A stretch of DNA of 64,000 bases from a virus: the IMG/VR virus record IMGVR_UViG_3300003177_000020, positions 16,033 to 80,032 of that record; one strand, written 5' to 3'. Position 1 is the stretch's first letter, and each line of letters begins with the position of its first letter. The translations under genes and the position numbers were made by a program. Below, piece by piece: positions 5,022-38,220 of this stretch. The notes under the pieces are model-generated. The model was not told where the DNA came from. It saw only the letters and a program-made list of their open reading frames with translations, and ran no database searches.

Positions 5022-5050
5022 TTGTAAGTGTCAGAGAATAACGCTATGGT
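5022..5050 (+). promoter_or_regulatory. sigma70-type promoter TTGTAA-17-TATGGT
   Basis: Same -35 as the promoter family, AT-rich upstream, lies ahead of the gene at 5106. Confidence 0.55.
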
Positions 5051-5105
5051 TTTTTCAGTTTTTGATCCGTTGAGGATCACTTTTTACAAACAAAAGGAGT
5101 TGAGA

Positions 5106-6614: not shown

Positions 6615-6743
6615 TTACATGTCTCAAATACAGTATTGTTTGATCTCCTCTGGTATGTGCTGCCACCACTGCCAAATAAGTGGAGTTGATCGCTTTAGTT
6701 CCCTTTCTCGGTCAGCTTCACTTCCCCTTTGGGGGTTTTCGTT

Positions 6744-22395: not shown

Positions 22396-22705
22396 GTGTT
22401 TATTGTGCTTTGTTGTGATCTGCTGTTGTTGAGGCTGTGCCGTGTTGAAGGTCTAAACAGGTGATTTGTTGTTATTGTAACAGAAAGGCTAGTTTTAGGC
22501 GTTTTATATGCTTGCTAGATAGATTGTATTGGTTGCGTTGAGTTTTTGCGTAATAGGGCTATTTCTGTGCTTCGATTTTAAGTGGGTTGTTTTTGTGATC
22601 TGGTATGGTGATCCTACGATGTGATCTGCTGTGTGTTGAATTTGTATGGTGTACGTGGTGTTTTCTTGTTGGTGTTGGTAGTAAAAGCGTAGAGTTATTA
22701 GTAAG

Positions 22706-22801: not shown

Positions 22802-22924
22802 ATGACAAACGCAGACTGGAAAGCCTACAAAGACGCAAGACGAAAAAGAATCATCAAAGAGAGCATCTGGATGGCAGCTGCGGTAGCCCTCAAGGCAGCC
22901 AGCTACTACGTGATTTTCTGCTAA
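22802..22924 (+). CDS. 40-aa peptide (MTNADWKAYKDARRKRII...), not in ORF track
   Basis: AAAAGGAG RBS directly downstream of promoter. Confidence 0.6.
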   Translation: MTNADWKAYKDARRKRIIKESIWMAAAVALKAASYYVIFC

Positions 22925-23017
22925 GGAACCACGGCAGATACAGAGAACAAATATTTCTTGTAACATGAAAAGGTAGTAATACCGCTACCTTGTAACCACT
23001 CAAAAGGAGTGAAGAAG

Positions 23018-23275
23018 ATGGAAACAGTACGCATGATCACAGGTGCAGAGTTGGACGCAAAGCTGGCAAAGAACATGGAATTTGAAGCGTGGATGGACGA
23101 TGTGGATGCCATGATTCAACGTCTAACAGGATTAGGATGTGATGATTTTGTTGACATCTGCTACAGAGATCTTTTCGACGCAGGATGTCTTCCCGATGGC
23201 GCACTTGAAGAACTGGCAGCGCAAGACAGCGTTTTTGCTGAGTTTATGCGAGCAGAGGGCTACCACATCGATTGA
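23018..23275 (+). CDS. Small acidic hypothetical protein
   Basis: AAAAGGAG RBS; FEAWM..VD.......GL..DD..D..YR..FD.G..P motif. Confidence 0.7.
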   Translation: METVRMITGAELDAKLAKNMEFEAWMDDVDAMIQRLTGLGCDDFVDICYRDLFDAGCLPDGALEELAAQDSVFAEFMRAEGYHID

Positions 23276-23358
23276 TTGGATCGAAACAACAAACAACAAC
23301 GCAGCACGCAATAAGGCAACGCTGCACAACAGCCTGATAGAAGGCAAAGGACACGGTT

Positions 23359-23583
23359 ATGAAAATGGCACACGTAGCGAGAATCATTGATAATTTTGAC
23401 CAAAATGTCATTGTTGCAACACCAACCAAACGAGGCATTCGCATCGGAGATGAACATCATCGGTGTTGGTTGGACAAGAAACAGGCAACCAAAGCAGTCC
23501 GAAAACTGAAGAAATTGAAAGGACAAGTTGGCGATTCTTATGAGGATTTTTGGGCAGCCATTGATTTTGGATTGCAAAAGTGA
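23359..23583 (+). CDS. Hypothetical early protein
   Basis: AAAGGA RBS. Confidence 0.6.
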   Translation: MKMAHVARIIDNFDQNVIVATPTKRGIRIGDEHHRCWLDKKQATKAVRKLKKLKGQVGDSYEDFWAAIDFGLQK

Positions 23584-23795: not shown

Positions 23796-23945
23796 AGCAC
23801 TTTTATACAGGATGTGATCTTGGAAGGTGATCCGTATGATCTCCAAAAGTGATCTGTATTGGCAGATAATTGGTGGTTCCACGGCAGTCCTGATGGGTAA
23901 GATTGTGTGTTTTTGAAAATAATTGTGTAGTGATAACGCCTACAT

Positions 23946-24064: not shown

Positions 24065-24271
24065 ATGACAAAGAAACAAAGAGAAGAAAGCCAACTCGCA
24101 GAAACAAACTTCAACGTACAAAGACTCTGCGAAGAAGCCCAACAAAAGCTGGCAGAAATTGCAGAGGGTATCAACCGCAACCACAACCTTGAAACAGCCA
24201 GCGAAATTGAAGAAAGCCTCGCATACTTCGTAGATCAACTCAACGGATTACGCAAACAAATCAAAGCGTAA
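24065..24271 (+). CDS. Small helical early protein
   Basis: AAAGGA RBS after promoter. Confidence 0.7.
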   Translation: MTKKQREESQLAETNFNVQRLCEEAQQKLAEIAEGINRNHNLETASEIEESLAYFVDQLNGLRKQIKA

Positions 24272-24460: not shown

Positions 24461-24730
24461 AAGGCTAACACCCGCAACATCCTACCACGCAGCCCTTCCT
24501 GCACGCTTTCTTTTCAATTCCCTATAATTACCCCACAAACACAATCGCAGCCCTTGTGTCGGCTGTATCGCGGTATCTGGTAGGTTGTACATTATGTTGC
24601 ACTTGTGATCTGCAGCTGATGATCTTGGTAGGCGATCAAGCTTGTTTCCTATGGATTATGATCGGATCACTTACAGAAAAAGATCATTCTGTCTAAATAG
24701 CAAACATAATTCTTTAGCAATAACGCCTAG

Positions 24731-24783
24731 ATGCTAACTTTTTATAAATAAAGCTTGTAAAGTGAAGTGATCCTAGCTACTAT
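24731..24783 (+). promoter_or_regulatory. Early-type promoter TTGTAA-17-TACTAT, GATC in spacer
   Basis: -35 at 24755-60, GATC at 24769-72, -10 at 24778-83. Confidence 0.8.
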
Positions 24784-24850
24784 CACAACATAACGAAGCG
24801 GGACGCAATAAAGCAAACCGCGCAACGCCTAAAAGGCAAAGGATAAGAAA

Positions 24851-25267
24851 ATGGAAAACATGACAAAAACCGAACAGTTCAACCTTTTGGAAGGCATCAC
24901 GCTCAAGACGATCAAAGGACGCGCTGAGATGCTCAAGCAGAAAGTTTTGAACGCCATCCAAGGGAACTGCGCAGCCTTTCGAATTGAGGAACTCTGCAAA
25001 TCGGAAGCCTACACCGAACATCTGATGCGGTACGAGAGGCTGCGCAACCACAAAGATTTTGAAAACCGACCATTTGACGCCTACTTGGAAGCCATGAAGC
25101 ACCAAGAAAGAGTTCTTTTCTCACAGGCAGATGGCGAATTTTCAACCAGCGCAGCTTACCGCTGCAACGCGCACTATAAAATACAAGTGGCGCGGGAACT
25201 GATGCAAGACCCTCTCTACCAAATGGCAAAAGACGCATCTGCCGAATACAAGGCAAACGAAGCGTAA
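24851..25267 (+). CDS. Hypothetical early protein
   Basis: AAAGGA RBS after promoter. Confidence 0.75.
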   Translation: MENMTKTEQFNLLEGITLKTIKGRAEMLKQKVLNAIQGNCAAFRIEELCKSEAYTEHLMRYERLRNHKDFENRPFDAYLEAMKHQERVLFSQADGEFSTSAAYRCNAHYKIQVARELMQDPLYQMAKDASAEYKANEA

Positions 25268-25497
25268 CACACGCCAAACAAAAGCCCACCCGATCAAACC
25301 TACCAGCAGCCTCCTAATTCCCCACAAAGCGCAACACAAACAAACCTCGCGCAAGTCCCTCCTTTGATCTGCATACAAACAGGCAGGACTTGGGATAGGC
25401 GCAGCCTCCCTGCGTTGCCTTATGGTCGCGTAATTCAGATCACATTAGGATCACTTCTACAATTCGCACTTTCAATTCTTTAGTCTTATCGCTTACT

Positions 25498-25549
25498 TGC
25501 TAACTATTTTTATTTATTCCTTGTAAGTTACACCGATCATCTCTACTAT
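25498..25549 (+). promoter_or_regulatory. Early-type promoter TTGTAA-17-TACTAT, GATC in spacer
   Basis: -35 at 25521-26, GATC at 25535-38, -10 at 25544-49. Confidence 0.8.
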
Positions 25550-25612
25550 AAGAATCAAGAAACGGGTAACGCAATAAAGCACAGCCCAACAACAACTCTA
25601 AAGGAGTTCAAA

Positions 25613-25894
25613 ATGATTACATCAAACAAAGCCTACCACGAAGCAGCAAACAACAACGCAGCATTTGAAGCACTCGCAACACAACACGGACATGAAGCGG
25701 TAGCAGATGCGCTGGCAACCTACCACCAAGAACACGCAACATTCAATGATAACGGTGAGTTGGAAGTGCCTAACGAAGACTTCCCAACAGCAGATGACGG
25801 CTACACAGTTGACCAATGGGTTGCAGACGTACTCAACGGAAATGGCGACGATGGCGAAGATTTGATACCAACAGAAGAAGACTTCATCATCTAA
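25613..25894 (+). CDS. Small highly acidic early protein
   Basis: AAAGGAG RBS; D/E-rich, only one Lys and no Arg. Confidence 0.75.
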   Translation: MITSNKAYHEAANNNAAFEALATQHGHEAVADALATYHQEHATFNDNGELEVPNEDFPTADDGYTVDQWVADVLNGNGDDGEDLIPTEEDFII

Positions 25895-25925
25895 GAAAAA
25901 CCAAAAGAAAACGCAAGCTTAGAAT

Positions 25926-25956
25926 GCTCTAGCAGAACATCGCTAGGGCTTTTTTT
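25926..25956 (+). terminator. Rho-independent terminator
   Basis: GCTCTAGC-N8-GCTAGGGC stem followed by T7. Confidence 0.8.
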
Positions 25957-26225
25957 GTAACCACACCATGCCATCCTACAACCACCTACCAGAACATAGC
26001 AAGCGATACAGGCTACACAGCGCGATTACAACAGGCAACATAACCCAACGTACCAATAGCAGCCTAAAACGCCACAAACGCAACATATAGCCTTCCTCGT
26101 ACAAGTTAGAGGCTACCATGCACACCTTCATTCATAGGGGGGGGGATTAGGAGGGGTTACAAAACACAACGGATGCGATCAATTTTGAAATAAGTTCACT
26201 TGCAGTAATGGCACTTGCAGTAAGT

Positions 26226-26504
26226 TCACTTTCCGAACACATATTTCTGGAAAGTTTCTTCATTGATGATTCCAGAGTTGCGAAGTCTATCGATGACTCC
26301 GAACCATTTTTTATCAGCCAGCCATTCAAGTCCTTCATTTTCAAACAGAGCGATATCGTCTGGTGTTGCTTGTGGCAGACTTGAGTGGACTACTTTTTTG
26401 TGGATGAGACCACCTAGTTCATTGACTTGGTAACCTCCGAGTATAACTAGCGGTTCTTTTGTGTCTTTTGCGATCATTGGTTTATTTGGATTTCGTTTTT
26501 TCAT
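26226..26504 (-). CDS. Hypothetical protein
   Basis: Last ORF of the - strand cluster. Confidence 0.55.
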   Translation of the reverse strand: MKKRNPNKPMIAKDTKEPLVILGGYQVNELGGLIHKKVVHSSLPQATPDDIALFENEGLEWLADKKWFGVIDRLRNSGIINEETFQKYVFGK

Positions 26505-27297
26505 TGTGCTGCTCACCTTGTTTCAATTTTTGAATGATCTCGCCATATTTTTTGAGTCGTGTTGCGTTGTCCACGTTCCAGACTTTGTTTTGTTCTGCGT
26601 GGTTCAATTTTGATTGAATTTCTGGGAGCAATTCTTCGTCGAATATGAACCCTGCTGGATCTTCTGTTTGATAGATATGGAGACCACTTGCGACGCCATC
26701 ACCCAGATTGTATGCCAGAGCGAGTCCTTTTGGGTGCATCACACGACGGTTGATTTCGCCTAGCAACCCTGTATCTGCGAGAAACTGTGGTGTGTTTTCA
26801 ACAGATGCTTTTATTTTTGCTTTGAAGGACATACTTTTTGCTTTTTGTTGAATTTTGTTTGTGATCTGTTCTGCGATGTATGCTGCCATTGGGATTGTGG
26901 GATCGACTTTGATCTTGGCATTTGCGATCACATATGCGAACATTCCCGCGTGCTGCAGCATCCTATGTTCGATTTGATCCAGAATGCCCACAACTATTTT
27001 TGAGTTTTTTGCAGTTCTCAATAGTGTGAGATTCGCAGTCATAATTTCGAGATAGCGATCATCTTTTGATTCGAGTCCTTCTTTGAATATTCTGAATGTT
27101 ACGCGATCATTTTGAATATCTTTTTGGACGAGCAGCACAGGTGCATTTCCAATGTACGCGAGGTGTCCTTTTTGTAGTTCCAAGCGTATAGCTTCCACCT
27201 GCTCATTTGACGCAGTCCAATCAACTTCATGTGCTGGTGGACGTGGTTCTTCTTCCATTGAATTGAATTGTGGTTGATCCAAGCGATTGTTTCCCAT
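26482..27297 (-). CDS. Hypothetical protein
   Basis: AAGGA RBS; F..TGLL.EINRRV.HP.GLAL motif. Confidence 0.7.
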   Translation of the reverse strand: MGNNRLDQPQFNSMEEEPRPPAHEVDWTASNEQVEAIRLELQKGHLAYIGNAPVLLVQKDIQNDRVTFRIFKEGLESKDDRYLEIMTANLTLLRTAKNSKIVVGILDQIEHRMLQHAGMFAYVIANAKIKVDPTIPMAAYIAEQITNKIQQKAKSMSFKAKIKASVENTPQFLADTGLLGEINRRVMHPKGLALAYNLGDGVASGLHIYQTEDPAGFIFDEELLPEIQSKLNHAEQNKVWNVDNATRLKKYGEIIQKLKQGEQHNEKTKSK

Positions 27298-27337
27298 TGT
27301 ATGTATTTCCTTTTGATACAGGTTGTGTATGTTCTGG

Positions 27338-27520
27338 CTATCTGATGCCATTGTAGATGTATGGTGATTTTTCTTTGACGGCATCAAATATTTTGCGACG
27401 GACAGCCTCTGTTTCAGGATCTTCATCCTCACACATGGGATTTTGCATCATGGCTGCAAGTATTTGTCTTTCTTCTGAATTGAGGGTTATTTTCAGTGTA
27501 ATTTCCGTTTCAATATTCAT
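27338..27520 (-). CDS. Hypothetical small protein
   Basis: GAAAGGA RBS; MMQNP motif. Confidence 0.6.
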   Translation of the reverse strand: MNIETEITLKITLNSEERQILAAMMQNPMCEDEDPETEAVRRKIFDAVKEKSPYIYNGIR

Positions 27521-27545
27521 TGCATTGTTCCTTTCGTGTTGTGTG

Positions 27546-28082
27546 CTAGGCACTTGCTAGTTTGATGATTTGTTTGAGGGTGTCGTGTGTAAATCTTTGA
27601 ACTACATGTGATTGATTCCAGATTGTAGTGGTGTATGTGTTTGTGATCTTTTCGTGTAACTGGAACCGATAAAGTTGCTTGTACACATCATCCGCAACTG
27701 ATTTAACAAGTCTGTCTCGCTCTAAAGCATTGATGGTCAGTATTTCCAAAATGCCGACAGCATACATTTTCAACCGTCCTTGCAGTGATTGCATCCCAAA
27801 ATATACCTTGGATTGTAATACTTCCGCATACAATTGATGTTGTGTAATTTCAGTTTCAATGTTTGTTGTTGGAAGTCCAGCACGTTTCCAGATTTGATCT
27901 TCTGGTATATCTGTATTTTGACAGATAATGTATTCCGTTGTTCGTACTTTTGCAGCTGCGATCCGTTCCAGTTGAACTTTTATGCCGATGTTGTCACGGC
28001 TGTTGTTTTGTTTTTGGGACGCAACTAACTGCTCCAATTTTATGTACGTGTCGAATATTTCATTTTCCAGATCGGATAACAT
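27546..28082 (-). CDS. Hypothetical protein
   Basis: GAAAGGG RBS. Confidence 0.6.
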   Translation of the reverse strand: MLSDLENEIFDTYIKLEQLVASQKQNNSRDNIGIKVQLERIAAAKVRTTEYIICQNTDIPEDQIWKRAGLPTTNIETEITQHQLYAEVLQSKVYFGMQSLQGRLKMYAVGILEILTINALERDRLVKSVADDVYKQLYRFQLHEKITNTYTTTIWNQSHVVQRFTHDTLKQIIKLASA

Positions 28083-28288
28083 ATAGGTTCCCTTTCTTAT
28101 TGACGGTCGCATACAAATCTAGTGTTGGCATGAGTATTTGCATTGATACCGTGCTGGGTGTTCATGTTCAAGGTTGATACGGATCATGTGTTTTTTGTGT
28201 TTGTATTTTGCACAGATCACACATTGCTTGTACCGTTTACCTCGTGATCCCCTTTTTGATCTTTGTTGTGATGTGTTCAATTTACCCT

Positions 28289-28582
28289 CTAAAGGTGGCT
28301 GCTTGGTGGGAAGCATGGTGGAAAATCAGCATGGCGATCCTCTGGCTCTGCTTTCTTCACTTCAAAAATATATTCTGCCATTTGATCCCAAACGCTATCC
28401 ACCTCGGCATCTTCACCCCACTGCGCACGGTAGTCATCGATCATCTTGATAATTGAGGTGCGTACAAAATCCTTTACAGATTCAATGCTTCCAGTGTAGC
28501 AGCCACAAAAAATATCGCTTGTGTTGCCGTTTATCGTGGAGACTTTGATCACATATTTTTCATTGTCGAATCGTCGTTTCAT
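28289..28582 (-). CDS. Hypothetical protein
   Basis: Start overlaps the upstream stop (TAATG). Confidence 0.55.
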   Translation of the reverse strand: MKRRFDNEKYVIKVSTINGNTSDIFCGCYTGSIESVKDFVRTSIIKMIDDYRAQWGEDAEVDSVWDQMAEYIFEVKKAEPEDRHADFPPCFPPSSHL

Positions 28583-28959
28583 TACACAAACTCCCAAGAG
28601 CAGATTACCAAAGGAAGAAGCCCATTGTGACCGTCAATTGCTGTATGTTTGATATCCTGCACGCAGCATCGGATGTGTTTTCCTTTTGTGTGCCATGTTC
28701 TCGGTCGTTTGAATTTTTTGCACAGGGAGTTCTTTGTTCGCCACCAACCGTTACCAGTGGAAACTCCTATTTGTACGACTGCTTGCGGTGCAGACAAAAA
28801 TGATCCTTCCGCAGTTGAACACGGTACAATTTGATCTTGGGAAAAATAAACTCCCAAACCTTCCGCATTTTGCTGCCCACAATGGAGAGTGAATGTCTCT
28901 CCAACTTTTGCTTGTGCTGCCTCTTTCCAGTTTGTAATATGAAAAAGCTTGTGTTCCAT
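28582..28959 (-). CDS. Possible ADP-ribosyltransferase-fold protein
   Basis: LFHIT...A and EGLGVYFS resemble the H- and Y-strands of PARP-like ARTs; first gene after a promoter. Confidence 0.4.
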   Translation of the reverse strand: MEHKLFHITNWKEAAQAKVGETFTLHCGQQNAEGLGVYFSQDQIVPCSTAEGSFLSAPQAVVQIGVSTGNGWWRTKNSLCKKFKRPRTWHTKGKHIRCCVQDIKHTAIDGHNGLLPLVICSWEFV

Positions 28960-29006
28960 TCTTGTGATCTCCTTCGTGCCTTATGCACTGTATTTGTTAC
29001 TTTTTC

Positions 29007-29058
29007 AGCTTACGATTGATCACGTACACTTACAAGATTTATTTATAAAAAGTTAGTA
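29007..29058 (-). promoter_or_regulatory. Early-type promoter TTGTAA-17-TAAGCT, GATC in spacer
   Basis: Upstream box identical to 331-359; GATC at 29018-21. Confidence 0.7.
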
Positions 29059-29079
29059 ACTATACGAAAGGCAAAGACA

Positions 29080-29367
29080 ATGACACACAGAATGTTACGA
29101 TTTGAAGAAATGATCTCCGAGATCGCATCCACAACGGGAGCCACAAAAAAGGAAGCTGCCAAAGTGATCAACGCTTACATTGATCTTATAGATCGGGAAC
29201 TGCAAGAAGGAAATGATGTCCGCTTGAAAGGGATCGGCAGATTTTGTGTTCGCACTTCCAAATCCAAGAAAGTGATCAACAAATATTTTGGTGTGAATCG
29301 CACCATACCACCGAAGAAATACATACATTTTCAATGCAGTGAAAAAATGCTGCGAAGAATCAACTAG
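29080..29367 (+). CDS. HU/IHF-family DNA-binding protein
   Basis: IA..TG.TKKEA..VI......I..EL..G.DVRL.GIG.F.V.....K....P.K...F. Confidence 0.88.
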   Translation: MTHRMLRFEEMISEIASTTGATKKEAAKVINAYIDLIDRELQEGNDVRLKGIGRFCVRTSKSKKVINKYFGVNRTIPPKKYIHFQCSEKMLRRIN

Positions 29368-29377
29368 GTATTAGATC

Positions 29378-30251
29378 TTAGGAGATTCCTCGGTCGACAA
29401 TTGGTGTCGATTCTTCGCAGCCGATCTTTGTTGGTGGCAGCCAGTATAGCACACTTTCTTTTCTTCCTTTTCCTATGCGGTAGGTGTGCCAGTGTGCGCG
29501 TCTCCAATGTGCTGCCTTTTGACTTCCGTTGCTGTTGCTATGTTGCGCAGTTCCTGTGGTGTTTTTGATATCGCTACCACGTCTATACCCAACATCGAAG
29601 CTGACGACTGCGCTTCATCCTGTGTTTGATATCTGCATTTTTGCAGCAAATATAAAGAAGCAAGTTGATCCCAATGTTTGCGATCTTGAAGATCGGTTCA
29701 AACACAGATCCATCGTAATTTACACCACCATCACGAATGCCTGTGATGATTGCCTCTTTGATTCCCATACCAGAAATAAATGGAATGAATAGTGGCAAAG
29801 GAACTCCCGTTTCAAAAAAGACTGTGATACGCAATTCCTCTTTATAATTCAATGTGTTCATGTGATCATCAAACCAGTCAATCGAACACAAGAATCCTTC
29901 AATGTTTTGTTTCCCATATGGTATGAAGATTGCCCATTCTGGCATCTTGTACAGCAGTTCAAATGGGAGTGGTTTATTCCCCAGTTCAGTAGGCACAATC
30001 TTACCGATCAAATCTTCCTTGATCGTGTAAATGCCCTTTGTATACCACCAATTGAGATATGTGGAATATTCCCATGCGTCTCGTAATTTCTGATTGTAAG
30101 CTTTCGCATATTCCACACCAAAACTGATGGGGAATAAAACATGTTCGGGTATGTTATCGAATTGGTTGTCGCGCACGGCTTGCATTGCCAGTGCTGCAAA
30201 GTGCTTGTTGTTATCAATATGGGTTCGAACTGTGGAGAGAAATTTACGCAT
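29378..30251 (-). CDS. AcrVA2/FinQ-like protein, frame broken at ~29615
   Basis: WWYTKGIY, LYKMPEWAIFI, LLLYIC, then in a second frame FDVGYR.G, HWRRAHWHTY..G......WLPP. Confidence 0.7.
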
Positions 30252-30300
30252 GAATCACTCCTTTTGAGTGTTGGTGATGGTTGCCTGTATGATCTTTTTG

Positions 30301-30636
30301 TTACACAAGATCCGTGATATCTACATCACAGTCAAAGAAGTTTTCTTCCAAAAATGCCAGTCTGTTTCGCACTTGCTGGCGTCGCTCTTCTTGTTCTTCT
30401 TTGAGTAAAATCTTGTTGTATGTTTTGTCGGAGCAGATTGCCTCGACTTCATTTTGAAGTATTTGTTTGTGGTTCATGTAGTAAGATGTGCGCTCCCATG
30501 CGCTTGCGCTTTCTGCCTCACGCTTCAATTCTTCTGCTCGTATTTTCAAGCTTGGAACTTCCCTGATGGCGAGGTTGTAGATCCATTCAAAGTTTGTTTT
30601 TGCTTTTTCTTCTTTGTAGTTTTTGTAGCTGTTCAT
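30301..30636 (-). CDS. Hypothetical early protein
   Basis: AAGGAG RBS after promoter. Confidence 0.7.
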   Translation of the reverse strand: MNSYKNYKEEKAKTNFEWIYNLAIREVPSLKIRAEELKREAESASAWERTSYYMNHKQILQNEVEAICSDKTYNKILLKEEQEERRQQVRNRLAFLEENFFDCDVDITDLV

Positions 30637-30681
30637 CTCTGTTCTCCTTGGTGCGTTTCGCACTGTGTTTGTTATGTTTAT

Positions 30682-30735
30682 ATAGTAGAGATGATCACTT
30701 CATTTTACAAGAAATAAATAAAAATAGTTAGCATC
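30682..30735 (-). promoter_or_regulatory. Early-type promoter TTGTAA-17-TACTAT, GATC in spacer
   Basis: -35 at 30705-10, GATC at 30693-96, -10 at 30682-87. Confidence 0.8.
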
Positions 30736-30784
30736 TATCCGACATCTCTACATTTTTTATGCGTGAAAATACACAGAATGATCT

Positions 30785-30994
30785 TTATTTCAAAATTGCA
30801 CGGCATAATTTGATCCGATCATCGGCATTCATAACACTTTTGTTTTGTATCAAGTGTGAACATCTTCTAATTTCTGCATCCATATTATTGCGACGCAGAT
30901 GCTCACCAACCATAATCAAAACAGCAAATGCCATAGCGAAAAAGAATAAACCAATTGTAAATACAATCTTGAAGTCCTCATTTACAAACGGCAT
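30785..30994 (-). CDS. Small membrane protein
   Basis: AAGGAGG RBS; one TM segment. Confidence 0.55.
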   Translation of the reverse strand: MPFVNEDFKIVFTIGLFFFAMAFAVLIMVGEHLRRNNMDAEIRRCSHLIQNKSVMNADDRIKLCRAILK

Positions 30995-31292
30995 TGTATC
31001 CTCCTTGTGTTCCAACAAACAACGATTCAAACACAACTTTTTCAACCACAACGAACATGCCGTTGCCAGATATAATGTAATGATCTGGAAGCACAGACTT
31101 CACACCGACCAGTTTTGATTTTATTTTAACAGTGTACGCACGGTGTATTTCCAAACCCCAAGAAACACGAGTTTCACTCCGTTCAGCATAAATCCCATGC
31201 CTCCCCAAAAATTTAATTGTGTAGTACAAAGATTCATTTGTGTTTTCAAAAAGTACCACTTCAACATTTTCTCGTGTACAAATCATATTCAA
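30978..31292 (-). CDS. Hypothetical protein
   Basis: Operon ORF. Confidence 0.5.
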   Translation of the reverse strand: MNMICTRENVEVVLFENTNESLYYTIKFLGRHGIYAERSETRVSWGLEIHRAYTVKIKSKLVGVKSVLPDHYIISGNGMFVVVEKVVFESLFVGTQGGYNAVCK

Positions 31293-31753
31293 TCACTCAA
31301 CTCTGTGATCATTCCAATTTTTGCGTAATACAAAATTCTGTTTCTCAGTGTTTCAAATTCTTCTGTGGTCTTCAGTGAAATAGCCGTCTTGACATCATCT
31401 AGGCTGTACCATTCTGCCAGAGTAACCTCCACGAGCAGCCCTTCAACACGTTTGTGCTTCACATATTGCGCAATCATGTGGCGTTTTTGTTGTAGCTCTT
31501 CTTTGATCTGCCACCCTGTATCTTTCCATTTATAATCAAAGATTTTTTTGCCATTCCTTTCAATTTCTGGATCTGATGGTGTGCAGAAATTTGGATCTTC
31601 GCCATAGCCAGCGACTAGAACACGCGCAGCATCCATGAAACTTCGTGCTAGGTATCCACCTTCTTCTGCATCGTCTCCATCCAGTTTCATCACCTGCTCT
31701 TCACTGTCGAATGCCCACTTGTAACCGTCTTTATCCGTGAACTTGATTTTCAT
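31289..31753 (-). CDS. Hypothetical protein
   Basis: AAGGAG RBS. Confidence 0.6.
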   Translation of the reverse strand: MKIKFTDKDGYKWAFDSEEQVMKLDGDDAEEGGYLARSFMDAARVLVAGYGEDPNFCTPSDPEIERNGKKIFDYKWKDTGWQIKEELQQKRHMIAQYVKHKRVEGLLVEVTLAEWYSLDDVKTAISLKTTEEFETLRNRILYYAKIGMITELSD

Positions 31754-32162
31754 TGATCCACTCCTTGATGGTGCTGCTGTTGAAATTGAAATTCTTCCCA
31801 AAAATAGTGATTCCGTGCTTGTTGAATGTCGCCATGATCGCGATCACTTTTGCAGTTTGGTTGAACAATTTTGCAATTGTACCTTTCTTTGTTTTTCCCG
31901 TGTGATCGCCATACATCATGAGATCGGATCGACTGGCAATATCTTTGATCAATTCTTCTTTGTTGTTTTCCAGCCAATCCCAGTGCTTGTCGAGTTCTTC
32001 TTTCGATTTGCACGCCATCAATTCCATGCCGTTCATTTGGACTGCCATTTCGATTGACATGATAAACAGTTTTGATCTGGTATCCAGATGTGAACTAAAC
32101 TCTCGTGCTGCTTCTTGAAGTTGCGCTTGCGTGTGCTTTCTTTTGAATCTTCTCTTTGCCAT
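31731..32162 (-). CDS. Hypothetical protein (starts MAKRRFKRK)
   Basis: IA..SD.MMYG, FN..A..IA.M....GIT.FG motif. Confidence 0.65.
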   Translation of the reverse strand: MAKRRFKRKHTQAQLQEAAREFSSHLDTRSKLFIMSIEMAVQMNGMELMACKSKEELDKHWDWLENNKEELIKDIASRSDLMMYGDHTGKTKKGTIAKLFNQTAKVIAIMATFNKHGITIFGKNFNFNSSTIKEWINENQVHG

Positions 32163-32170
32163 TTTGACAC

Positions 32171-32509
32171 CTATTTTATGTTGTGTTTGTACTCGTGCTG
32201 ATCCATACGATATCGGATAATTGGTATCCCATAATTATTCATTTTGTGAGCTGACAACAATCCTGCGTCACCATAAGTTTGAAGTAAAAAGTCATTCAGA
32301 GATATACCGTCTGGACATTTGAGATCATCATTAAATTTGCACACGTCGAATCCATATTGAATTGAAAAGTAATCTTTCAACTTCAGATCAAATATGTTTT
32401 CAAATTCTTTTTTTTCTTTTTCTGTTGGAAAATAACGCTTAGGCGTCTCTTGTATTTGTTTATTTGGGGAATCATCCGCTTGCATTCTCCTGAATCTTCT
32501 CTTTGCCAT
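32171..32509 (-). CDS. Hypothetical protein (starts MAKRRFRR)
   Basis: GFD..KF.D.L..PDG.SL..F....YG motif. Confidence 0.65.
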   Translation of the reverse strand: MAKRRFRRMQADDSPNKQIQETPKRYFPTEKEKKEFENIFDLKLKDYFSIQYGFDVCKFNDDLKCPDGISLNDFLLQTYGDAGLLSAHKMNNYGIPIIRYRMDQHEYKHNIK

Positions 32510-32521
32510 TGCAGCATCCCT

Positions 32522-32776
32522 TCAAGATTCTTTTTTATCCGCAAATGTACACAGGTATTCAGTGCGGAATAATGGCAGTTCTTTCATTTCATGCGTTGCA
32601 ACAAATCTGTTCTGTTCAACTGAAAAATGAAAGTGTATTGGTTTGATATTATTCTCTTTGAAACAACGATCACACACATGGATGTGTCCGTTGATCTTAT
32701 CATCAATAACACCTGTCACATGTTTCGTTTCCATTGTTGCTGGAACTGTAGCACCGCAAAGATCACATTTCATCAT
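32522..32776 (-). CDS. Small zinc-finger protein
   Basis: CDLCG...HVCDRC; AGGAG RBS. Confidence 0.6.
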   Translation of the reverse strand: MMKCDLCGATVPATMETKHVTGVIDDKINGHIHVCDRCFKENNIKPIHFHFSVEQNRFVATHEMKELPLFRTEYLCTFADKKES

Positions 32777-32793
32777 GCCAAACTCCTATGGCT

Positions 32794-33109
32794 TCAAACG
32801 TCAAACTCTCCATCCAGCAGGTGCGGGAATAACCCACGCAGACTTGACTCACATCTTCTGTTCATGGTGTCCAAAATATTTTTTGCACTGCTATCCGACA
32901 CATCAACTTCATTTTCTGATATTTCCTTGAAACGGTCTATTACACACACAGCATATTCTCTGAGTGCATCGTATAGCTTGCTTGTGGTATTTGCCTGTTG
33001 TGAATAAATCAGCATCGCAGCAGCAAGTTCTCTGGATGTTTTTTTCTTTAAATCTTCTTCAAAAAACCCAAGAACATCTTTGACCAAGTTGATCCGATAC
33101 GTCGTTCAT
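32794..33109 (-). CDS. Hypothetical protein (possible 1-nt insertion near 33085)
   Basis: MNDVSDQ and LVKDVLG... join if one base is removed. Confidence 0.45.
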
Positions 33110-33332
33110 TTTGAGTCTTGATTTTTGTTTCAATGGCATACATTCGTGTGCGTAATTTTGATGTGTAAGTTCCGATCTCCTTTGATGAAAAATAAAAACC
33201 GACAATACCTTTTTTGAATGCTAACTGTTCGAGATCGCTGATAACAGATTCAAGTTGACCAAATGGCACAAACTCTTTCAGTAATATGTATAGCATCGCT
33301 GTTACTGGATCTTTTGTGTGCTTGTCTTCCAT
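33048..33332 (-). CDS. Hypothetical protein
   Basis: DPV..LY.LL...VP.G..E motif. Confidence 0.55.
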   Translation of the reverse strand: MEDKHTKDPVTAMLYILLKEFVPFGQLESVISDLEQLAFKKGIVGFYFSSKEIGTYTSKLRTRMYAIETKIKTQNERRIGSTWSKMFLGFLKKI

Positions 33333-33927
33333 CAGAAACGCTTCCCATGTTTTGCGCTGCGGTTTGCGTTGTATTCGATCTTTGCAGCTACAGCACTGTC
33401 CAAATCGATATTGAAACGTCCACAGTAATCCAACAATCGAATTTGCAGATCTGCGAGTTCCTCATCCTCTGCAGAAAAACCATCGATCTTGCTTGACTGC
33501 TGCACACCACCATACATTGTTCTGGCTCGTAGCCCTTCCAACACTTCTGAAATTTCAGAGTGCATCAATGCCAGTGCGCGTGATTTTTCATTCAGGATGT
33601 AATTATCCAAGCCAAATAATGTGTTGAACATTTTGTAATTCTCTGACAACTGTTACATTCCACAAATTCTTGTTCAATCACCCACGCTCTTTGTTTTTCA
33701 TCTGGAATAAACCTTTCCAGTTCTCGGAAACTGTTCTCACCATATTTTTCGTGCAGAACACAGATCATCTTTGCAGCAAAGAACTCTTCCTGAGAAATTG
33801 TATCCCAGAAACCTTTTTCTTTTGATATTCCGTGAAATACTTCTGCAAGACCAGTGAGAGGTCTTTCTTCACGCAAGTAATCCACCATGTCACCAACAAA
33901 CGTTTGCATTTTATCACTAAGTTTCAT
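33332..33927 (-). CDS. MazG-like NTP pyrophosphohydrolase, split by a frameshift near 33650
   Basis: H.IS.EKGFW in frame 1; LALMHSEISEVLE, EELAD..IR.LD, K..YN..R..KHGK.F in frame 2. Confidence 0.8.
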
Positions 33928-34139
33928 CCTTCACCTTCTTTCATGTCGCAGCATCGATCCAACAATGCCATTGCGTTTTCATTTGTTTCTTCTTTGTGCT
34001 TTTTTAGGCGTTCAAGCACAGCCGATATAAATTGCGACGGCTTAAGCTCAAACCCTAGTGTTTTTCTTTCTGCTTGTGTTTGTTCATCGATGAAGTTGAC
34101 AAGATCCTCATCGATATAAAATGATTTTTTTACTTTCAT
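33924..34139 (-). CDS. Ribbon-helix-helix (CopG-like) regulator
   Basis: KKSFYIDEDL..FID......S.FI..VL. Confidence 0.6.
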   Translation of the reverse strand: MKVKKSFYIDEDLVNFIDEQTQAERKTLGFELKPSQFISAVLERLKKHKEETNENAMALLDRCCDMKEGEG

Positions 34140-34151
34140 GGTTCCTCACTT

Positions 34152-35444
34152 TTAGAATGGGATAGCATCAAACAATTCTGTGTGTGCATCCAAAAATTCA
34201 TGTGGTTCATATGGTGCAGTTCTTTGGAATGCCATAGTTACTCCTGCGTATTCCACCCCTTTGTTTTCCGCGTAAATTGTGCATGGTTTCAACTCATCAT
34301 AAAATACGATCTCTACACCTTGAAACCCTGTGACGTGTTCCAGAAATATGAGAAGTTGATCTATGCTGTATGTGTTTTCGATAACATCTGCTACTTGTAA
34401 TTTTTCAAGATTCAAAAACTCTTTGTAGGCATAAAATTCTGCAATATCACTTTCGGATTCATCAGCAATAAATGGTATCGAAATGTCAATACCAGTCTCA
34501 GCAGTTTTGATCCACACAATTGGAACTGCTTCTTTCTTTTTAAGCTGCATCTTTTTGTATTGTGCGGAAGCTTCACGCAGGATTGTTTTGAACTGTTCCA
34601 GTTGTATGGGATCAATCAAATATGAGTGTGATATTTCTTTCGGTATGACTGCTTCAACGTGATATTCTTGGTAGTAATAGAGTCCATCTTTCATGGCAAC
34701 TGTAAGATTTTCAAATTTGATTTGCGCCTCATCATCTATGTGGCAAAGCTCCACGGGACTCTTGTTTGTTTTATTTGACGCTCCATTTTTGTAGATTGTG
34801 TGCATCACTTTTGATGGTATTGCTACTCGTAATTTTTGGCTTTGACCAGTGTACTTCTGTTTGGTTCGAATAGCGTATTGCGCGACTGGAACGGCTGTGG
34901 ATTGGATAATCAATTCATTGTTTGAAACTTCAAATGCCACACCATCGCTGTCTCTATAATGCAATGTTCGCACTTGCAACGCTGGTTTCATGAGTTCGTA
35001 TGTTTGGCAGAATGTTTCATTATCAATGCTTAAAACATTTGTTGTATCCGAACAAAATAATGATCTGCAATCTTCCCCATCAAAGAAATTTGTTTTGAAC
35101 AATGCGATATCGTGCGGAAACATTTCCACATCAATTACACAGGTATTTGCGACAACCGTGAATGCATTTTGCTGTACTGGTGTGAAGAAGATATCGCTTT
35201 TTGAATCACACGCAGAAATTATTTGTGCTGTATGACTGCGATTCAAAATATACAAACCCGTTGAAAGCACACGGCATGTAATTTCAACTTCTACTGCGAT
35301 GCCTTGTGGGAATGCGAGACCAAATATGCGAACACCAACACCCTCTGTTGCGGATAAAAAATATCGTGTTGGTTTGTACAATTTATGAAAGCATCCATCT
35401 ATTTTCTTTATGGATTTTGATAGCACCTTGTTATTTATAATCAT
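34152..35444 (-). CDS. Highly divergent DNA polymerase III beta-clamp-like protein
   Basis: Length and spaced motifs GVAFE....L..ST, IPSK, Y..VIP, Y..DQL..FL......V...F.....P..I, VTM. Confidence 0.55.
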   Translation of the reverse strand: MIINNKVLSKSIKKIDGCFHKLYKPTRYFLSATEGVGVRIFGLAFPQGIAVEVEITCRVLSTGLYILNRSHTAQIISACDSKSDIFFTPVQQNAFTVVANTCVIDVEMFPHDIALFKTNFFDGEDCRSLFCSDTTNVLSIDNETFCQTYELMKPALQVRTLHYRDSDGVAFEVSNNELIIQSTAVPVAQYAIRTKQKYTGQSQKLRVAIPSKVMHTIYKNGASNKTNKSPVELCHIDDEAQIKFENLTVAMKDGLYYYQEYHVEAVIPKEISHSYLIDPIQLEQFKTILREASAQYKKMQLKKKEAVPIVWIKTAETGIDISIPFIADESESDIAEFYAYKEFLNLEKLQVADVIENTYSIDQLLIFLEHVTGFQGVEIVFYDELKPCTIYAENKGVEYAGVTMAFQRTAPYEPHEFLDAHTELFDAIPF

Positions 35445-35469
35445 GTTCTTGTCCGATCTCTGGTGGGTG

Positions 35470-36216
35470 CTAGAATGGGATCACTTCGACTCTTTTTGGT
35501 TCTTTTCGTGTGTGATCTGCATTCCAGTCACGAAGAACAAAGTAGCAAGGGACACTGTTGTTTTTCATCGCAACCCAAAGATTCATTGCTGTTTCAATCG
35601 GCACATTGTAAAAACATGCTGCCGATCCACTTTTGCGCAGAATACTTGCAACTTCTGCTGCATAGGATCGAACTTCTTTTTCAGCTTGAAAATTCTCCAT
35701 TCTGAAATGCGGGTCTGCGACTGTTACCCATTCAGTGCAATCCATCCGTGCTTTCTTTTCAATTGTTTCTTTGTACAGATCTGGGCTGTACCGCGAGAAT
35801 ATGATCATTTTGCTTGTTTCGTAATATGCAGGTCTTTCGACTGCAAATCGGATCGGCATTACCCAACGCACACCTGTTGGTGTGAATGGATATTCTCCTG
35901 TTCTTTTGTTTTTTGGTGATGGGATTGTAACAGGAACAAACACGTTGATCCGAGACATCATGCACTGTTTTGCGATTCCAATGCAGTAATTTGTCTCACC
36001 AGAAACCATAATTCCTGCAACATGGTTTCCATTTTGATGTTCGTTATCGATCACACGCAGGACACGTTTCCACGCAGCCATTGATTGCTTTTTGATTCCA
36101 CGATTATCTGCATATGGATGCACCGCAGACTCGCCATCAAGTGCAAATTGCACATCGCACTTTTGCCAGATAGAATTATCCATCCTTCTACCTGTCGCAT
36201 TGACAATGTATTTCAT
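35470..36216 (-). CDS. Hypothetical protein (weak SLOG/YspA-like start)
   Basis: IVNATGRR, MVSG; weak similarity only. Confidence 0.5.
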   Translation of the reverse strand: MKYIVNATGRRMDNSIWQKCDVQFALDGESAVHPYADNRGIKKQSMAAWKRVLRVIDNEHQNGNHVAGIMVSGETNYCIGIAKQCMMSRINVFVPVTIPSPKNKRTGEYPFTPTGVRWVMPIRFAVERPAYYETSKMIIFSRYSPDLYKETIEKKARMDCTEWVTVADPHFRMENFQAEKEVRSYAAEVASILRKSGSAACFYNVPIETAMNLWVAMKNNSVPCYFVLRDWNADHTRKEPKRVEVIPF

Positions 36217-36233
36217 TTTTTTTGAACTCCTGT

Positions 36234-36572
36234 TTATTTTTTCTTTTCATTGAAAATTTTCAATCCGTCTTCAAAAGAAAGAAGTTTTTCAGATGTACCC
36301 CATGCCGAGTGTCCATTGCTCGCGATCCACGATTTTTCCAGTATCCACGCTTTTATTCCCTTGCTGTATGCGGGATACAGTCGGCAGAGATCATAACCGC
36401 GATATCCTTTCGGATCGTAAATTGGATCGACTTTTCCCACTTCTTCAAATGTGATGGCTGGAAATTTTGAGATAAGCAGTTGACCGACTGTGATTGATTC
36501 TTCGCCTTCGTTACGTCCACGCTGTAAGAGTTCTGTTTTGTGCTTGTATTTGAAATCTTGAAAATTGATCAT
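36234..36572 (-). CDS. Hypothetical protein
   Basis: GGAG RBS before MINFQD. Confidence 0.6.
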   Translation of the reverse strand: MINFQDFKYKHKTELLQRGRNEGEESITVGQLLISKFPAITFEEVGKVDPIYDPKGYRGYDLCRLYPAYSKGIKAWILEKSWIASNGHSAWGTSEKLLSFEDGLKIFNEKKK

Positions 36573-36642
36573 AGCTTCACTCCATTTGAGTTGCATGTTG
36601 TGTTTTGGCATCCTCATCAGCATATAGTTGCCAGCGCTGGGA

Positions 36643-37548
36643 TCAATCGTCTGTATTTTCAGCTTCTTGTTTGGCTTCGTACCAGTCAAATGCTTCTTGT
36701 TTGATCTGCATTGGATTGTGGTATGGCGCGTCGATTGTTTCATAAAGTGTGCATTCTTCGCTTTCAAAGTCTTGATCGTATACCAACACACCTTCAGGCT
36801 TGTATTCATCCCAATACCATCGGAGCTTCCCTGTGGTGATGAATAATGTTTCTGGTTCAGGATGGATGTCATCTGCTTCCCACGCTTTCAATCCTTCCCC
36901 TGCAACATAGTTTCGATGATCGACATACACTGTGGCTATCCACTTGCCATCAGGCATCTTTGTGTTTTGGACTTTGAGACCGAGATCTTTCCCATCGATG
37001 TATTTTGGTTTGATCCCTGCGCGACGGTTTTTAGCACGCTGCTCAATTCCAGATGGTTTGAATATGTGGAATCTTTCTTTGTTGAAATCGCTTGTGATGT
37101 TGGCATGGAATGTCATATTCAGGTTGTCATCGAACTGCGGTAGGCAGAATGAATCTCCACCTTCAGCTGCAAGTCGAATCAAATTGCGGTCAATCCCATC
37201 TTCAACATCAATGTATTTGCCTTCGACTTCCCGATATAACACAGACATTGCGCGGTGTAATTTGTATGCAAATTCAAACGGTACGACGATATTGATGCTG
37301 CCTTTGTCGTCCCACGCTACGATTGATTTGAGGTTGCTTCCATATCCGCGTGCAACCGCTTTGACAAACTTTCGTGCTGCATCTCTCCACTTCCGACTGC
37401 TTTCTGGATACTCCAACCGAAAGCCTCCGAATACATGTATGGATTCATTTGGCATTTTGAATGCCGCTAGGACATGAGGCTGCTGAAGAGTTGCTGCAAA
37501 GATTTTAGAACCTGTGGTTGGTGTGTAGATAAAATGACGCTTGATCAT
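36643..37548 (-). CDS. Hypothetical protein
   Basis: ACTCAAAAGGAG RBS; 301 aa. Confidence 0.75.
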   Translation of the reverse strand: MIKRHFIYTPTTGSKIFAATLQQPHVLAAFKMPNESIHVFGGFRLEYPESSRKWRDAARKFVKAVARGYGSNLKSIVAWDDKGSINIVVPFEFAYKLHRAMSVLYREVEGKYIDVEDGIDRNLIRLAAEGGDSFCLPQFDDNLNMTFHANITSDFNKERFHIFKPSGIEQRAKNRRAGIKPKYIDGKDLGLKVQNTKMPDGKWIATVYVDHRNYVAGEGLKAWEADDIHPEPETLFITTGKLRWYWDEYKPEGVLVYDQDFESEECTLYETIDAPYHNPMQIKQEAFDWYEAKQEAENTDD

Positions 37549-37574
37549 GATTGACTCCTTTTGAGTTTGTATTT

Positions 37575-37650
37575 ACTGCACCATTGCAGTTTTCGGCTTG
37601 AGCGCGTACCTTTCGGAACCCTAGCACCGCTCGCATTTACGGCTGCGAAT
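37575..37650 (-). ncRNA. Candidate structured RNA in intergenic leader
   Basis: Nested GAGCG/CGCTC, GTGC/GTAC and CC-GAAA-GG, followed by ACTGCA-ATGG-TGCAGT hairpin. Confidence 0.4.
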
Positions 37651-37668
37651 CACCGTTGATTGTGCGAT

Positions 37669-38124
37669 TTATTCCCAAGAACTTAATTCTTTTATGAGTT
37701 CTTCGATTTCTTCGTCATCGTATCCTGCACCGCTGCATGGATCTGTTTGCGTGATACGATCTCCATCTTCGTTTTCCCATGTGTATTCGATGTTGATGTT
37801 TGTCGGGTCATACTGCCAAAAAACAATCTCTGGTTTTCTTGTCTCATCTTCCTGTGTTTCATCCCAGAGAAATATTCGAATGTCTGAGTCTGCGTTTTCG
37901 TATTTGAATGTTCCTTCGTGTTCCTGAGTCAAGAACAGATTCACAAAATGCTTCTTGTCTTCTTCGAATAATTCCAGTTCATCGCTTTGATCATTTTTTG
38001 TGAAGTATTCGAACTCTCCATCTGCGGTATCAAATTCGATGCGTGAAATTTCTTTGTAGTCGATTCCAATTCTTGCAAGTGCTTTTCTTTGTGCTGCGTT
38101 GAAATTTGAAAATACCTTTTTCAT
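37669..38124 (-). CDS. Highly acidic early protein
   Basis: ACTCAAAAGGAG RBS; D/E-rich; first gene after promoter. Confidence 0.75.
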   Translation of the reverse strand: MKKVFSNFNAAQRKALARIGIDYKEISRIEFDTADGEFEYFTKNDQSDELELFEEDKKHFVNLFLTQEHEGTFKYENADSDIRIFLWDETQEDETRKPEIVFWQYDPTNINIEYTWENEDGDRITQTDPCSGAGYDDEEIEELIKELSSWE

Positions 38125-38191
38125 TGCCTTACTCCTTTTGAGTCGTTGTTTTTGTTTGCGATCTTTTGTGATCGCGTCGTCTACGTTCACG

Positions 38192-38220
38192 AATATAGTC
38201 GAGATCACTTTTAGGGTCAA
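38192..38220 (-). promoter_or_regulatory. Promoter TTGACC-17-TATATT, GATC in spacer
   Basis: GATC at 38203-06, same offset as in the other four promoters. Confidence 0.75.

Follow-up and report, generated by a model that had tools for sequence, protein, structure and literature searches.

In the early promoters of the uncultured phage recorded as IMGVR_UViG_3300003177_000020 in IMG/VR (genome, 80,032 bp), GATC occurs at a fixed place of the spacer between the -35 and -10 hexamers more often than by chance, and this pattern, judged from the DNA sequence, is probably regulatory. Our preferred, still tentative reading, to which we assign a probability of about 40%, is that the spacer GATC would be a selected, protein-read and probably methylation-sensitive cis-element of one subclass of early promoters. 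Coordinates refer to the analysed window, a stretch of 64,000 nt corresponding to record positions 16,033 to 80,032, with position 1 being its first letter.

An earlier note on this DNA had described five promoters in which 8 nt separate GATC from the -35 hexamer and 5 nt from the -10 hexamer, and all five were recovered where it had located them. Exact matches to TTGTAA-N8-GATC-N5-TANNNT, none of which are expected in shuffled sequence, were found at 24755-24783 (+), 25521-25549 (+), 29007-29035 (-) and 30682-30710 (-), and the fifth site, TTGACC-N8-GATC-N5-TATATT, at 38192-38220 (-). P24755 (TTGTAA-17-TACTAT; GATC at 24769-24772) is situated upstream of a 138-aa ORF (24851-25267) and P25521 (GATC at 25535-25538) upstream of a very acidic 93-aa ORF (25613-25894). 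On the minus strand, P29035 (TTGTAA-17-TAAGCT; GATC at 29018-29021) precedes a leftward operon from 28959 to ~25976, P30710 (GATC at 30693-30696) serves the ORFs 30301-30636 and 29583-30251, and P38220 (TTGACC-17-TATATT; GATC at 38203-38206) precedes a long leftward operon from 38124 to ~30785. In each case, GATC takes up spacer positions 9-12 and thus lies within the core promoter.

Across the 80,032-bp genome, an offset scan of all 50 TTGNNN-N17-TANNNT sites revealed five GATC at offset 8, compared with 0.48 expected per offset, and 0-1 GATC at each of the other offsets. The enrichment corresponds to a Poisson P of 1.4e-4, or to P=6e-3 upon correction for 42 offset and spacer choices. Four of the five GATC promoters are paralogues from a single family, which may reduce the number of independent events to two to four; counting P24755 and P30710 as one changes the corrected P to 0.06. 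The four family promoters are mosaic cassette copies sharing 64-82% identity over 60-157 bp. Variation of the bases flanking the spacer GATC, as previously asserted, was evident among P24755, P25521 and P29035, where only 3-4 of the 13 non-GATC spacer bases agree, yet GATC is conserved in all four letters. It did not extend to two of the pairs with P30710, with seven of the eight bases before GATC being identical between P24755 and P30710, and all five bases after it between P25521 and P30710. GTGATC is present in four of the five spacers and AAGTGATC in three, while P25521 reads CCGATC, leaving GATC alone as common to all five.

The absence of a spacer GATC from four further promoters was confirmed. 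P354 (354-382, +), a family member with GTGTCAGAG in the spacer, belongs to a MoxR-type ATPase gene (422-1609); P5022 (5022-5050, +), a weak family member with the spacer GTGTCAGAG, belongs to ORF 5028-6332, which precedes the DNA polymerase genes. The family members P22730 (22730-22758, +; spacer CTGTCATAG) and P23968 (23968-23996, +; CTGTAT-17-TATACT) are associated with three small ORFs (22802-23583) and a 68-aa ORF (24065-24271), respectively. The proposed division into two promoter classes is visible at the level of sequence, with GATC spacers on the one side and spacers of the GTGTCAGAG type or others on the other. P38220, which had been counted as a family member, is not one; it is devoid of the TAACT/A+T-rich upstream element and its -35 hexamer is TTGACC.

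All nine promoters have a 17-bp spacer and are followed on the same strand, at a distance of 60-100 nt, by a start codon with an AAGGAG-type ribosome site; an A+T-rich, UP-like element following TAACT is present in seven of them. The nine sites thereby have the predicted make-up of sigma-70-type promoters, as used by host RNA polymerase. A sigma-70 scan returned P38220 as the best match in the region; the generic scan misses the TTGTAA/TACTAT family (8/12 matches), and its site count was not above that of shuffles. A conserved ACATAAC at 5-11 nt after the -10 hexamer marks the putative start region and fixes the register, placing the spacer GATC at approximately -21 to -18. GATC spacers occur with both upstream-element subtypes and with both leader types, in addition to the non-family P38220.

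GATC is also concentrated upstream of the promoters. Between -160 and -50, the nine promoters together have 30 GATC versus 9.5 ± 3.0, a count reached in none of 20,000 random draws (P<5e-5), and the density in non-coding DNA is one GATC per 60 bp in promoter windows compared with one per 173 bp elsewhere. Of 22 copies of AAGTGATC, ten are found in the surroundings of these promoters, which make up 4.1% of the genome (P=5e-9), and three of these ten are the spacer sites themselves. Each of the four GATC-class cassettes contains a second, conserved GATC, in the form of GATCAYT, 86-94 bp upstream. The region before P24755 holds a cluster of six GATC within ~80 bp (24607-24688), partly at 13-14 bp spacing, one of which, a GATCAYT at 24682, is located 87 bp upstream of the GATC in the spacer; the GATC-rich stretch upstream of P29035 (29112-29277) holds seven GATC, a GATCAYT at 29112 and two AAGTGATC. 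Arrays also precede promoters without a spacer GATC, namely three GTGATC units at exactly 13-bp spacing upstream of P22730 (22597-22626) and four GATC at spacings of 13, 9 and 13 upstream of P23968 (23816-23854).

Genome-wide, GATC is present in 764 copies, corresponding to one per 105 bp and 2.6 times the zero-order expectation. Synonymous shuffling yielded 294 ± 10.5 copies against 448 observed (z=14.6), revealing GATC to be selected at the DNA level throughout the genome. The gaps between copies are Poisson-like (CV 0.98), ruling out an even-spacing model. The uncultured myophage lineage to which the phage belongs spans G+C contents of 42 to 59% and shows a two- to 3.6-fold enrichment of GATC at the DNA level, and four of five distant relatives have the DNA-level selection for GATC in common with the phage.

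The closest terminase (TerL) matches were located on a 73.9-kb ENA contig (P0002; 88% identity) and on another contig (P0003; 67%). Searching a phage collection by megablast and blastn gave no match, and TerL tblastn gave identities of at most 25%; a single-protein scan of IMG/VR and a profile search of genome contigs with the TerL alignment were likewise negative. An alignment scan of IMG/VR revealed relatives with 42-52% TerL identity, whose early regions share none of the genes of the window at 21.7-42.4 kb and in which the spacer-GATC pattern is absent save for two chance-level matches. Scanning IMG/VR for TTGTAA-N8-GATC-N5-TACTAT returned 59 unrelated singletons, and a metagenome scan with the upstream-element/-35 pattern returned only unrelated A+T-rich matches. 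Among the sequencing runs checked, the phage DNA was present only in the source metagenome, with no RNA run listed as containing it, and no variants were seen among the source-metagenome contigs covering it. No tRNA genes were found across the window, and there was no match to Rfam families between 21000 and 41000.

Two candidate enzymes for writing a methylation mark are encoded by the phage. One is the product of a late (head) gene (49320-50843, +), a fusion in which a D12-class N6-adenine methyltransferase domain (aa 113-294) precedes an XkdF-type prohead protease. The FxGGG and DPPY motifs of the domain are intact; it scores 56.7 bits in Pfam (cut-off 22), and the solved structures matching it best are 7m6b (E=1.5e-8) and DpnM (E=1.6e-3). 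Its NCBIfam Dam score of 46.5 bits is far under the cut-off of 114.85 bits, for which reason it is a candidate GATC-specific enzyme only, one that could write the GATC mark. The other (15724-17061, +) is a predicted ParB-N6_N4 methyltransferase fusion; it is kept in four of five relatives, with no match in the partial record G005. On the side of a reader, a search of the phage for SeqA, MutH and GcrA domains found none, the GcrA family PF07750 giving no match at E<=1. None of 20 early ORFs had a significant Pfam match, ORF 24065-24271 giving a non-significant Arc-like hint (E=0.067), and an Atlas search with ORF 23359-23583 returned no informative match; a DNA-binding fold was recognised in none of these early ORFs.

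Several known systems resemble parts of this arrangement. In the classic Dam-sensitive promoters (IS10 pIN, IS50 transposase, dnaA P2 and P1 cre), GATC overlaps one of the two hexamers, -10 or -35, and makes transcription respond to whether the DNA is methylated or replicated. The phage GATC is also inside the promoter, but in mid-spacer and recurring in five promoters of one genome. As in Mu mom-OxyR, pap-Lrp, agn43, opvAB and SeqA at oriC/dnaA, two to six GATC lie within ~100 bp upstream at spacings of 9-14 bp; unlike in these switches, the phage arrays are built from a GTGATC unit with a 13-bp period and have no recognisable OxyR or Lrp-like site. The distribution of repeated early-promoter cassettes across a hyperplastic region of small ORFan genes recalls the PeSL cassettes of T4-type phages, whose spacers hold a stem-loop, whereas the phage spacers do not fold; a PeSL hairpin model was rejected, with folding energies of 0 to -4.5 kcal/mol being no better than those of shuffles.

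The closest parallel in position is the GcrA/CcrM system of Caulobacter, in which, as in the phage, an adenine-methylation word is fixed near -20 in only a subset of sigma-70-type promoters. GcrA boxes (m6A-GANTC) have their centre at -20 ± 1 of the spacer and are bound from the side opposite RNA polymerase, the criterion used being a methylation word centred at -20 ± 1 or -30 ± 2 (PMC9976885); relative to the putative start, the phage GATC coincides with the first of these positions. In solved promoter complexes, including that with GcrA (PMC9976885), the spacer turns its major groove at this point away from RNA polymerase. Both systems have an extended asymmetric motif around the core word (YGAKTCG for GcrA, often AAGTGATC in the phage), and GcrA boxes can sit just downstream of the start, where P5022 has GATCACTT at about +20. 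The phage differs in that its word is GATC instead of GANTC and its genome contains no GcrA homologue; the setting is a cell-cycle regulon for GcrA and, for the phage, an early region.

According to the preferred reading, a GATC-reading protein of host or phage would dock at the spacer GATC together with the second GATC, which lies ~87 bp upstream, and the arrays of GATC/AAGTGATC, and its binding would be set by the adenine-methylation state of the site. Transcription of accessory early genes would thereby be coupled to the phage DNA being fully methylated, hemimethylated or unmethylated. The genes controlled would be hypervariable, anti-defence-like early genes transcribed by host RNA polymerase. 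A reader protein, GATC methylation and the direction of the effect are all things that we infer.

In the main rival explanation, the ancestral cassette would merely have happened to contain a spacer GATC that was kept by genome-wide GATC selection unrelated to transcription, with P38220 being a coincidence. That the four family promoters arose as mosaic copies of one another is clear, and under selection of the observed strength an existing GATC would tend to stay while its flanks drift, so that this selection alone could preserve the ancestral site; at one GATC per 105 bp and a fixed offset, a single coincidence at P38220 is not rare. We nevertheless regard this explanation as somewhat unlikely. 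The Poisson-like gaps imply no pressure for even coverage, non-coding DNA outside the promoters is GATC-poor, three family members are wholly without a spacer GATC, and the spacer sites share a promoter-specific 8-mer (AAGTGATC) and are found across both upstream-element and leader subtypes. The clustering of this 8-mer at the promoters also fits with an operator read independently of methylation, where a phage or host regulator, acting as a repressor or activator, would bind (A)AGTGATC in the spacer and in the upstream arrays, with GATC being merely part of its site. GTGATC units at 13-bp spacing upstream of P22730, P23968 and P24755 are iteron-like and typical of repressor arrays, and such sites are also found upstream of promoters without a spacer GATC. 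This is nonetheless doubtful, because P25521 has CCGATC, leaving only GATC itself common to all five spacers, the early proteins searched yielded no recognisable regulator fold, and both the excess of GATC throughout the lineage and the methyltransferases encoded by the phage suggest that GATC serves as a methylation word.

The simplest version of the idea in the earlier note is direct sensing by RNA polymerase, with N6-methyladenine at -20/-19 altering spacer geometry or the sigma contact near -18 and no accessory protein taking part. Sigma-70 is reported to sense spacer sequence around -18, the classic Dam-sensitive promoters IS10 pIN and dnaA P2 work without a dedicated reader, and GATC keeps exactly the same distance from each of the hexamers. 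In the classic cases, however, GATC overlaps a hexamer and is not in mid-spacer, and direct sensing leaves the conserved upstream GATC and the arrays unexplained. Together with the outward-facing major groove at -20 in the GcrA complex (PMC9976885), this makes direct sensing the least probable of the explanations weighed, and a very unlikely one.

The incoming-versus-replicated DNA switch that had been suggested for these promoters would be a coherent model. Its most elaborate form is a phage-borne epigenetic timer, which we consider improbable as a whole. The D12 methyltransferase, a late product that may be enclosed in the capsid, would mark the GATC of packaged DNA, and a reader at -20 would dock on the RNA polymerase-free face of the spacer, following GcrA-like logic with GATC as the word. 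The accessory/anti-defence operons would fire only from incoming DNA, being on when it is fully methylated and silent once replication leaves hemimethylated sites, and the two- to three-fold GATC excess of the lineage would be part of the same system.

Because the promoters are short and portable, the methylation hypothesis is directly testable without the phage's own host. Methylation-state timing is known from IS10, dnaA and Caulobacter GcrA, but we know of no earlier description of it for the early promoters of a phage. If the GATC at -20 is read in a methylation-dependent manner, the replication and methylation state of the phage's own DNA would set the timing of the accessory genes that are expressed first.

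The arrangement reported in the earlier note, in which five phage promoters carry GATC at one fixed position of a 17-bp spacer, 8 nt after the -35 and 5 nt before the -10 (offset 8), was recovered exactly as described. In these promoters, named by their -35 start (P24755 and P25521 on the plus strand; P29035, P30710 and P38220 on the minus strand), the spacer GATC starts at 24769, 25535, 29018, 30693 and 38203, respectively. Among 50 TTGNNN-N17-TANNNT sites in the whole genome, GATC was found five times at offset 8 versus 0.48 expected, and zero to one time at each other offset, giving a Poisson P of 1.4e-4 and of 6e-3 upon correction for 42 choices; when P24755 and P30710 were treated as a single lineage, P after full correction was only 0.06. 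In the same genome-wide scan, 16- or 18-bp spacers revealed GATC enrichment at no particular offset.

The source genome, a single virus record of 80,032 bp (window: its bases 16033-80032), is that of an uncultured myovirus-like phage, and the overlap of the record ends indicates that it was assembled as a circle. Recognised genes include those for the large terminase (43875-45356), portal (46050-47723), a sheath-like protein (59264-61621), a family-A DNA polymerase in two pieces (6729-9318) and ThyX (41141-42040), as well as RecA-like, SbcCD-like and RuvC-like proteins and a MoxR ATPase; neither a sigma factor nor an RNA polymerase was recognised among the phage genes. The searched phage collection contained zero nucleotide-level relatives, and phage DNA was detected in sequencing runs of the source metagenome only. 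For the source run, the Logan contig comprises 80,803 bp, with six extra pieces of 28-51 nt each that are missing from the record (window positions 23591/2, 24351, 26145, 29608/9, 33652/3 and 36635/6), and the overlapping contig ends differ by a 37-nt piece. The extra pieces, which may be an assembly difference, leave the promoter cores untouched.

A clear promoter family is formed by seven sites (354+, 22730+, 23968+, 24755+, 25521+, 29035- and 30710-) with the consensus TAACT, 15 A+T-rich bases, TTGTAA, 17 bases and TACTAT, four of which contain the spacer GATC. The wider membership proposed earlier held for these sites; 5022 is a weak member only, and 38220, the top sigma-70 match of the region, is unrelated (TTGACC, without the TAACT element). 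Downstream of each site, at a distance of 60-100 nt on the same strand, lies a start codon with an AAGGAG-type ribosome site. The motif ACATAAC follows the -10 in one register common to the family sites, suggesting that transcription starts about 7 nt past the -10, which would put the spacer GATC at about -21 to -18. In spacers without GATC, the words GTGTCAGAG (354 and 5022) and CTGTCATAG (22730) stand directly after the -35 and may constitute a second class-specific element. A folding check showed no hairpins in the promoter spacers. The leaders of P29035 and P30710 (minus strand; 28960-28990 and 30637-30665) have in common a small hairpin, GTGC-loop-GCAC, just 5' of the ribosome-binding site, and ACGCAATAAAGCA-like text is common to the leaders of 23968, 24755 and 25521.

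Units headed by the GATC-class promoters lie in a hypervariable block (24.8-38.1 kb), the ORFs of which are ORFans, several of them extremely acidic. Of the promoters without spacer GATC, 354 and 5022 head the replication module, and 22730 and 23968 head the first two small units. Small early proteins that are very acidic are encoded at 25613-25894, 37669-38124 and 23018-23275, with, for example, 21 D/E versus 1 K/R in 93 aa or 40 D/E in 151 aa; they are reminiscent of DNA-mimic anti-restriction proteins, with zero family matches.

The promoter cassettes are mosaic paralogues of 64-82% identity over 60-157 bp. Seven of the eight bases before GATC are alike between 24755 and 30710, as are all five bases after it between 25521 and 30710. 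Comparison of 24755, 25521 and 29035 revealed only 3-4 of 13 non-GATC spacer positions to be alike, which is about random, with GATC invariant. GATC spacers are found with either subtype of the upstream element and with either leader subtype, and a second GATC (in GATCAYT) 86-94 bp upstream is kept in all four GATC cassettes and also in 354. The persistence of conserved islands in diverged cassette DNA argues for constraint.

This argument is weakened because, in a GATC-favouring genome, a spacer GATC that was inherited would be retained even if it served no promoter-specific function. Across its 80 kb, the genome has 764 copies, a count that is 2.6-fold what a zero-order model predicts and 1.2-fold what a second-order Markov model predicts. 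In 38 well-supported genes, 448 copies were counted versus 294±10.5 after synonymous-codon shuffling (z = 14.6), with the excess present in all three codon phases, which implies selection at the DNA level. Even GATC coverage as the selected trait was ruled out by the Poisson-like gaps between sites (CV 0.98). Avoidance of other palindromes in the 80,032 bp is extreme (CCGG 0, GGCC 1, GGATCC 0, CGATCG 0), and TTAA, CTAG and TATA occur at 0.16-0.27 of expectation; this avoidance, absent from the relatives, points to a host with many restriction systems. Since GATC is favoured everywhere, the spacer sites might be passengers of genome-wide selection, an explanation that we regard as rather unlikely and against which the promoter-specific enrichment speaks. 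In the -160 to -50 windows of nine promoters (the five with spacer GATC and the four without, 354, 5022, 22730 and 23968), 30 GATC were found versus 9.5±3.0, a number reached by none of 20,000 random draws (P < 5e-5); the UP-element stretch contained zero. The density was one per 60 bp in non-coding DNA of promoter windows, one per 173 bp in other non-coding DNA and one per 103 bp in coding DNA. Also speaking against passengers, many of the upstream sites consist of GTGATC repeated at exact 13-bp spacing in an iteron-like layout (22597/22610/22623, 23816/23829, 23838/23851, 24621/24634, 275/288 and 4865/4878, within the stretches 22597-22626, 23816-23854, 24607-24637, 275-291 and 4865-4881), 13 being the commonest short GATC spacing genome-wide (16 versus about 7 expected), and the 8-mer AAGTGATC clusters near promoters, with 10 of its 22 copies within the 4.1% of the genome around the nine promoters (P = 5e-9), three of the ten being the spacer sites of 24755, 30710 and 38220. 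Taken together, upstream enrichment, arrays and clustering indicate that the spacer GATC is one part of a broader collection of GATC-containing elements associated with promoters, a collection that also flanks promoters without spacer GATC.

In the protein database, the terminase was 88% identical in one contig (P0002, 73.9 kb) and 67% in another; IMG/VR relatives reached 42-52% only, five of which were assembled (G001-G005; G+C about 41-59%). Synteny with the phage covers the structural module in all five relatives; it extends to the replication module in G001-G003, with little or none of that module in the partial records G004 and G005. The region 21.7-42.4 kb of the window has zero homologues in any of the five, none of which repeats the spacer pattern, and pattern scans of IMG/VR and metagenomes returned unrelated singletons only. 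Observed/expected GATC ratios were 2.33, 2.02, 1.05, 3.53 and 3.62 for G001-G005, so that the excess, seen in four of five, is a lineage trait. The exception, G003, has a four-copy cassette on its reverse strand (L119-L120; about 78.3, 79.9, 81.0 and 81.7 kb) consisting of an A+T tract, TTGTAAG, about 31 bases, TACTAT (TATTAT in one copy), CT and GATC; each of the four copies thus has GATC two bases past its TACTAT-type box, and the copies are too alike to be informative. In three copies ATG follows directly, and their transcripts may be leaderless. G005 (L186-L188) contains a repeated perfect intergenic hairpin, CCCGGTTTGCG-loop-CGCAAACCGGG, at 1031, 2211, 7015, 17960, 31235 and 40915, probably a terminator family.

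A candidate GATC writer is encoded in the head module (49320-50843, plus strand), where a D12-class adenine methyltransferase domain (Pfam, 56.7 bits) with FxGGG and DPPY is fused in frame ahead of an XkdF-type prohead protease. It stays a candidate because it scored 46.5 bits against the NCBIfam Dam model (cut-off 114.85) and its solved relatives, 7m6b and then DpnM, are distant. Among the relatives, the D12 domain occurs in G004 only, as an 821-aa open frame with the protease, a fusion absent from G001-G003 and G005. The ParB-N6_N4 methyltransferase encoded at 15724-17061 is another candidate writer; it is present in G001-G004, with zero match in the partial G005. SeqA, MutH and GcrA domains were not found in the phage, and the early ORFs yielded no recognisable DNA-binding fold.

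According to a cryo-EM study of GcrA, the Caulobacter reader of methylated GANTC, most methylated boxes are centred on -20±1 between the -35 and the -10, where GcrA contacts the major groove from the side facing away from RNA polymerase, and other boxes lie at +5 to +30 (PMC9976885). The phage spacer GATC occupies the same place as the -20 boxes and, like the downstream ones, GATCACTT lies at about +20 of P5022. This GcrA-like position favours a protein-read element over direct sensing of methylation by the holoenzyme, which we consider very improbable; an operator recognising (A)AGTGATC independently of methylation is unlikely. Our tentative reading, at a probability of about 0.4, is that the spacer GATC would be bound by a reader protein to an extent set by its methylation state. 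The methylation-sensitive interpretation put forward in the earlier note is partly supported: an 'incoming versus replicated' switch fits the layout, since the candidate writer is a late gene, GATC promoters stand before accessory early operons and the promoters of the replication module have no spacer GATC, and every functional step of it is one that we infer. Methylation words inside promoters are an already known kind of element, of which the phage case would, judged from its sequence, be a variant, and the spacer GATC merits experimental work, given how simple the test is.
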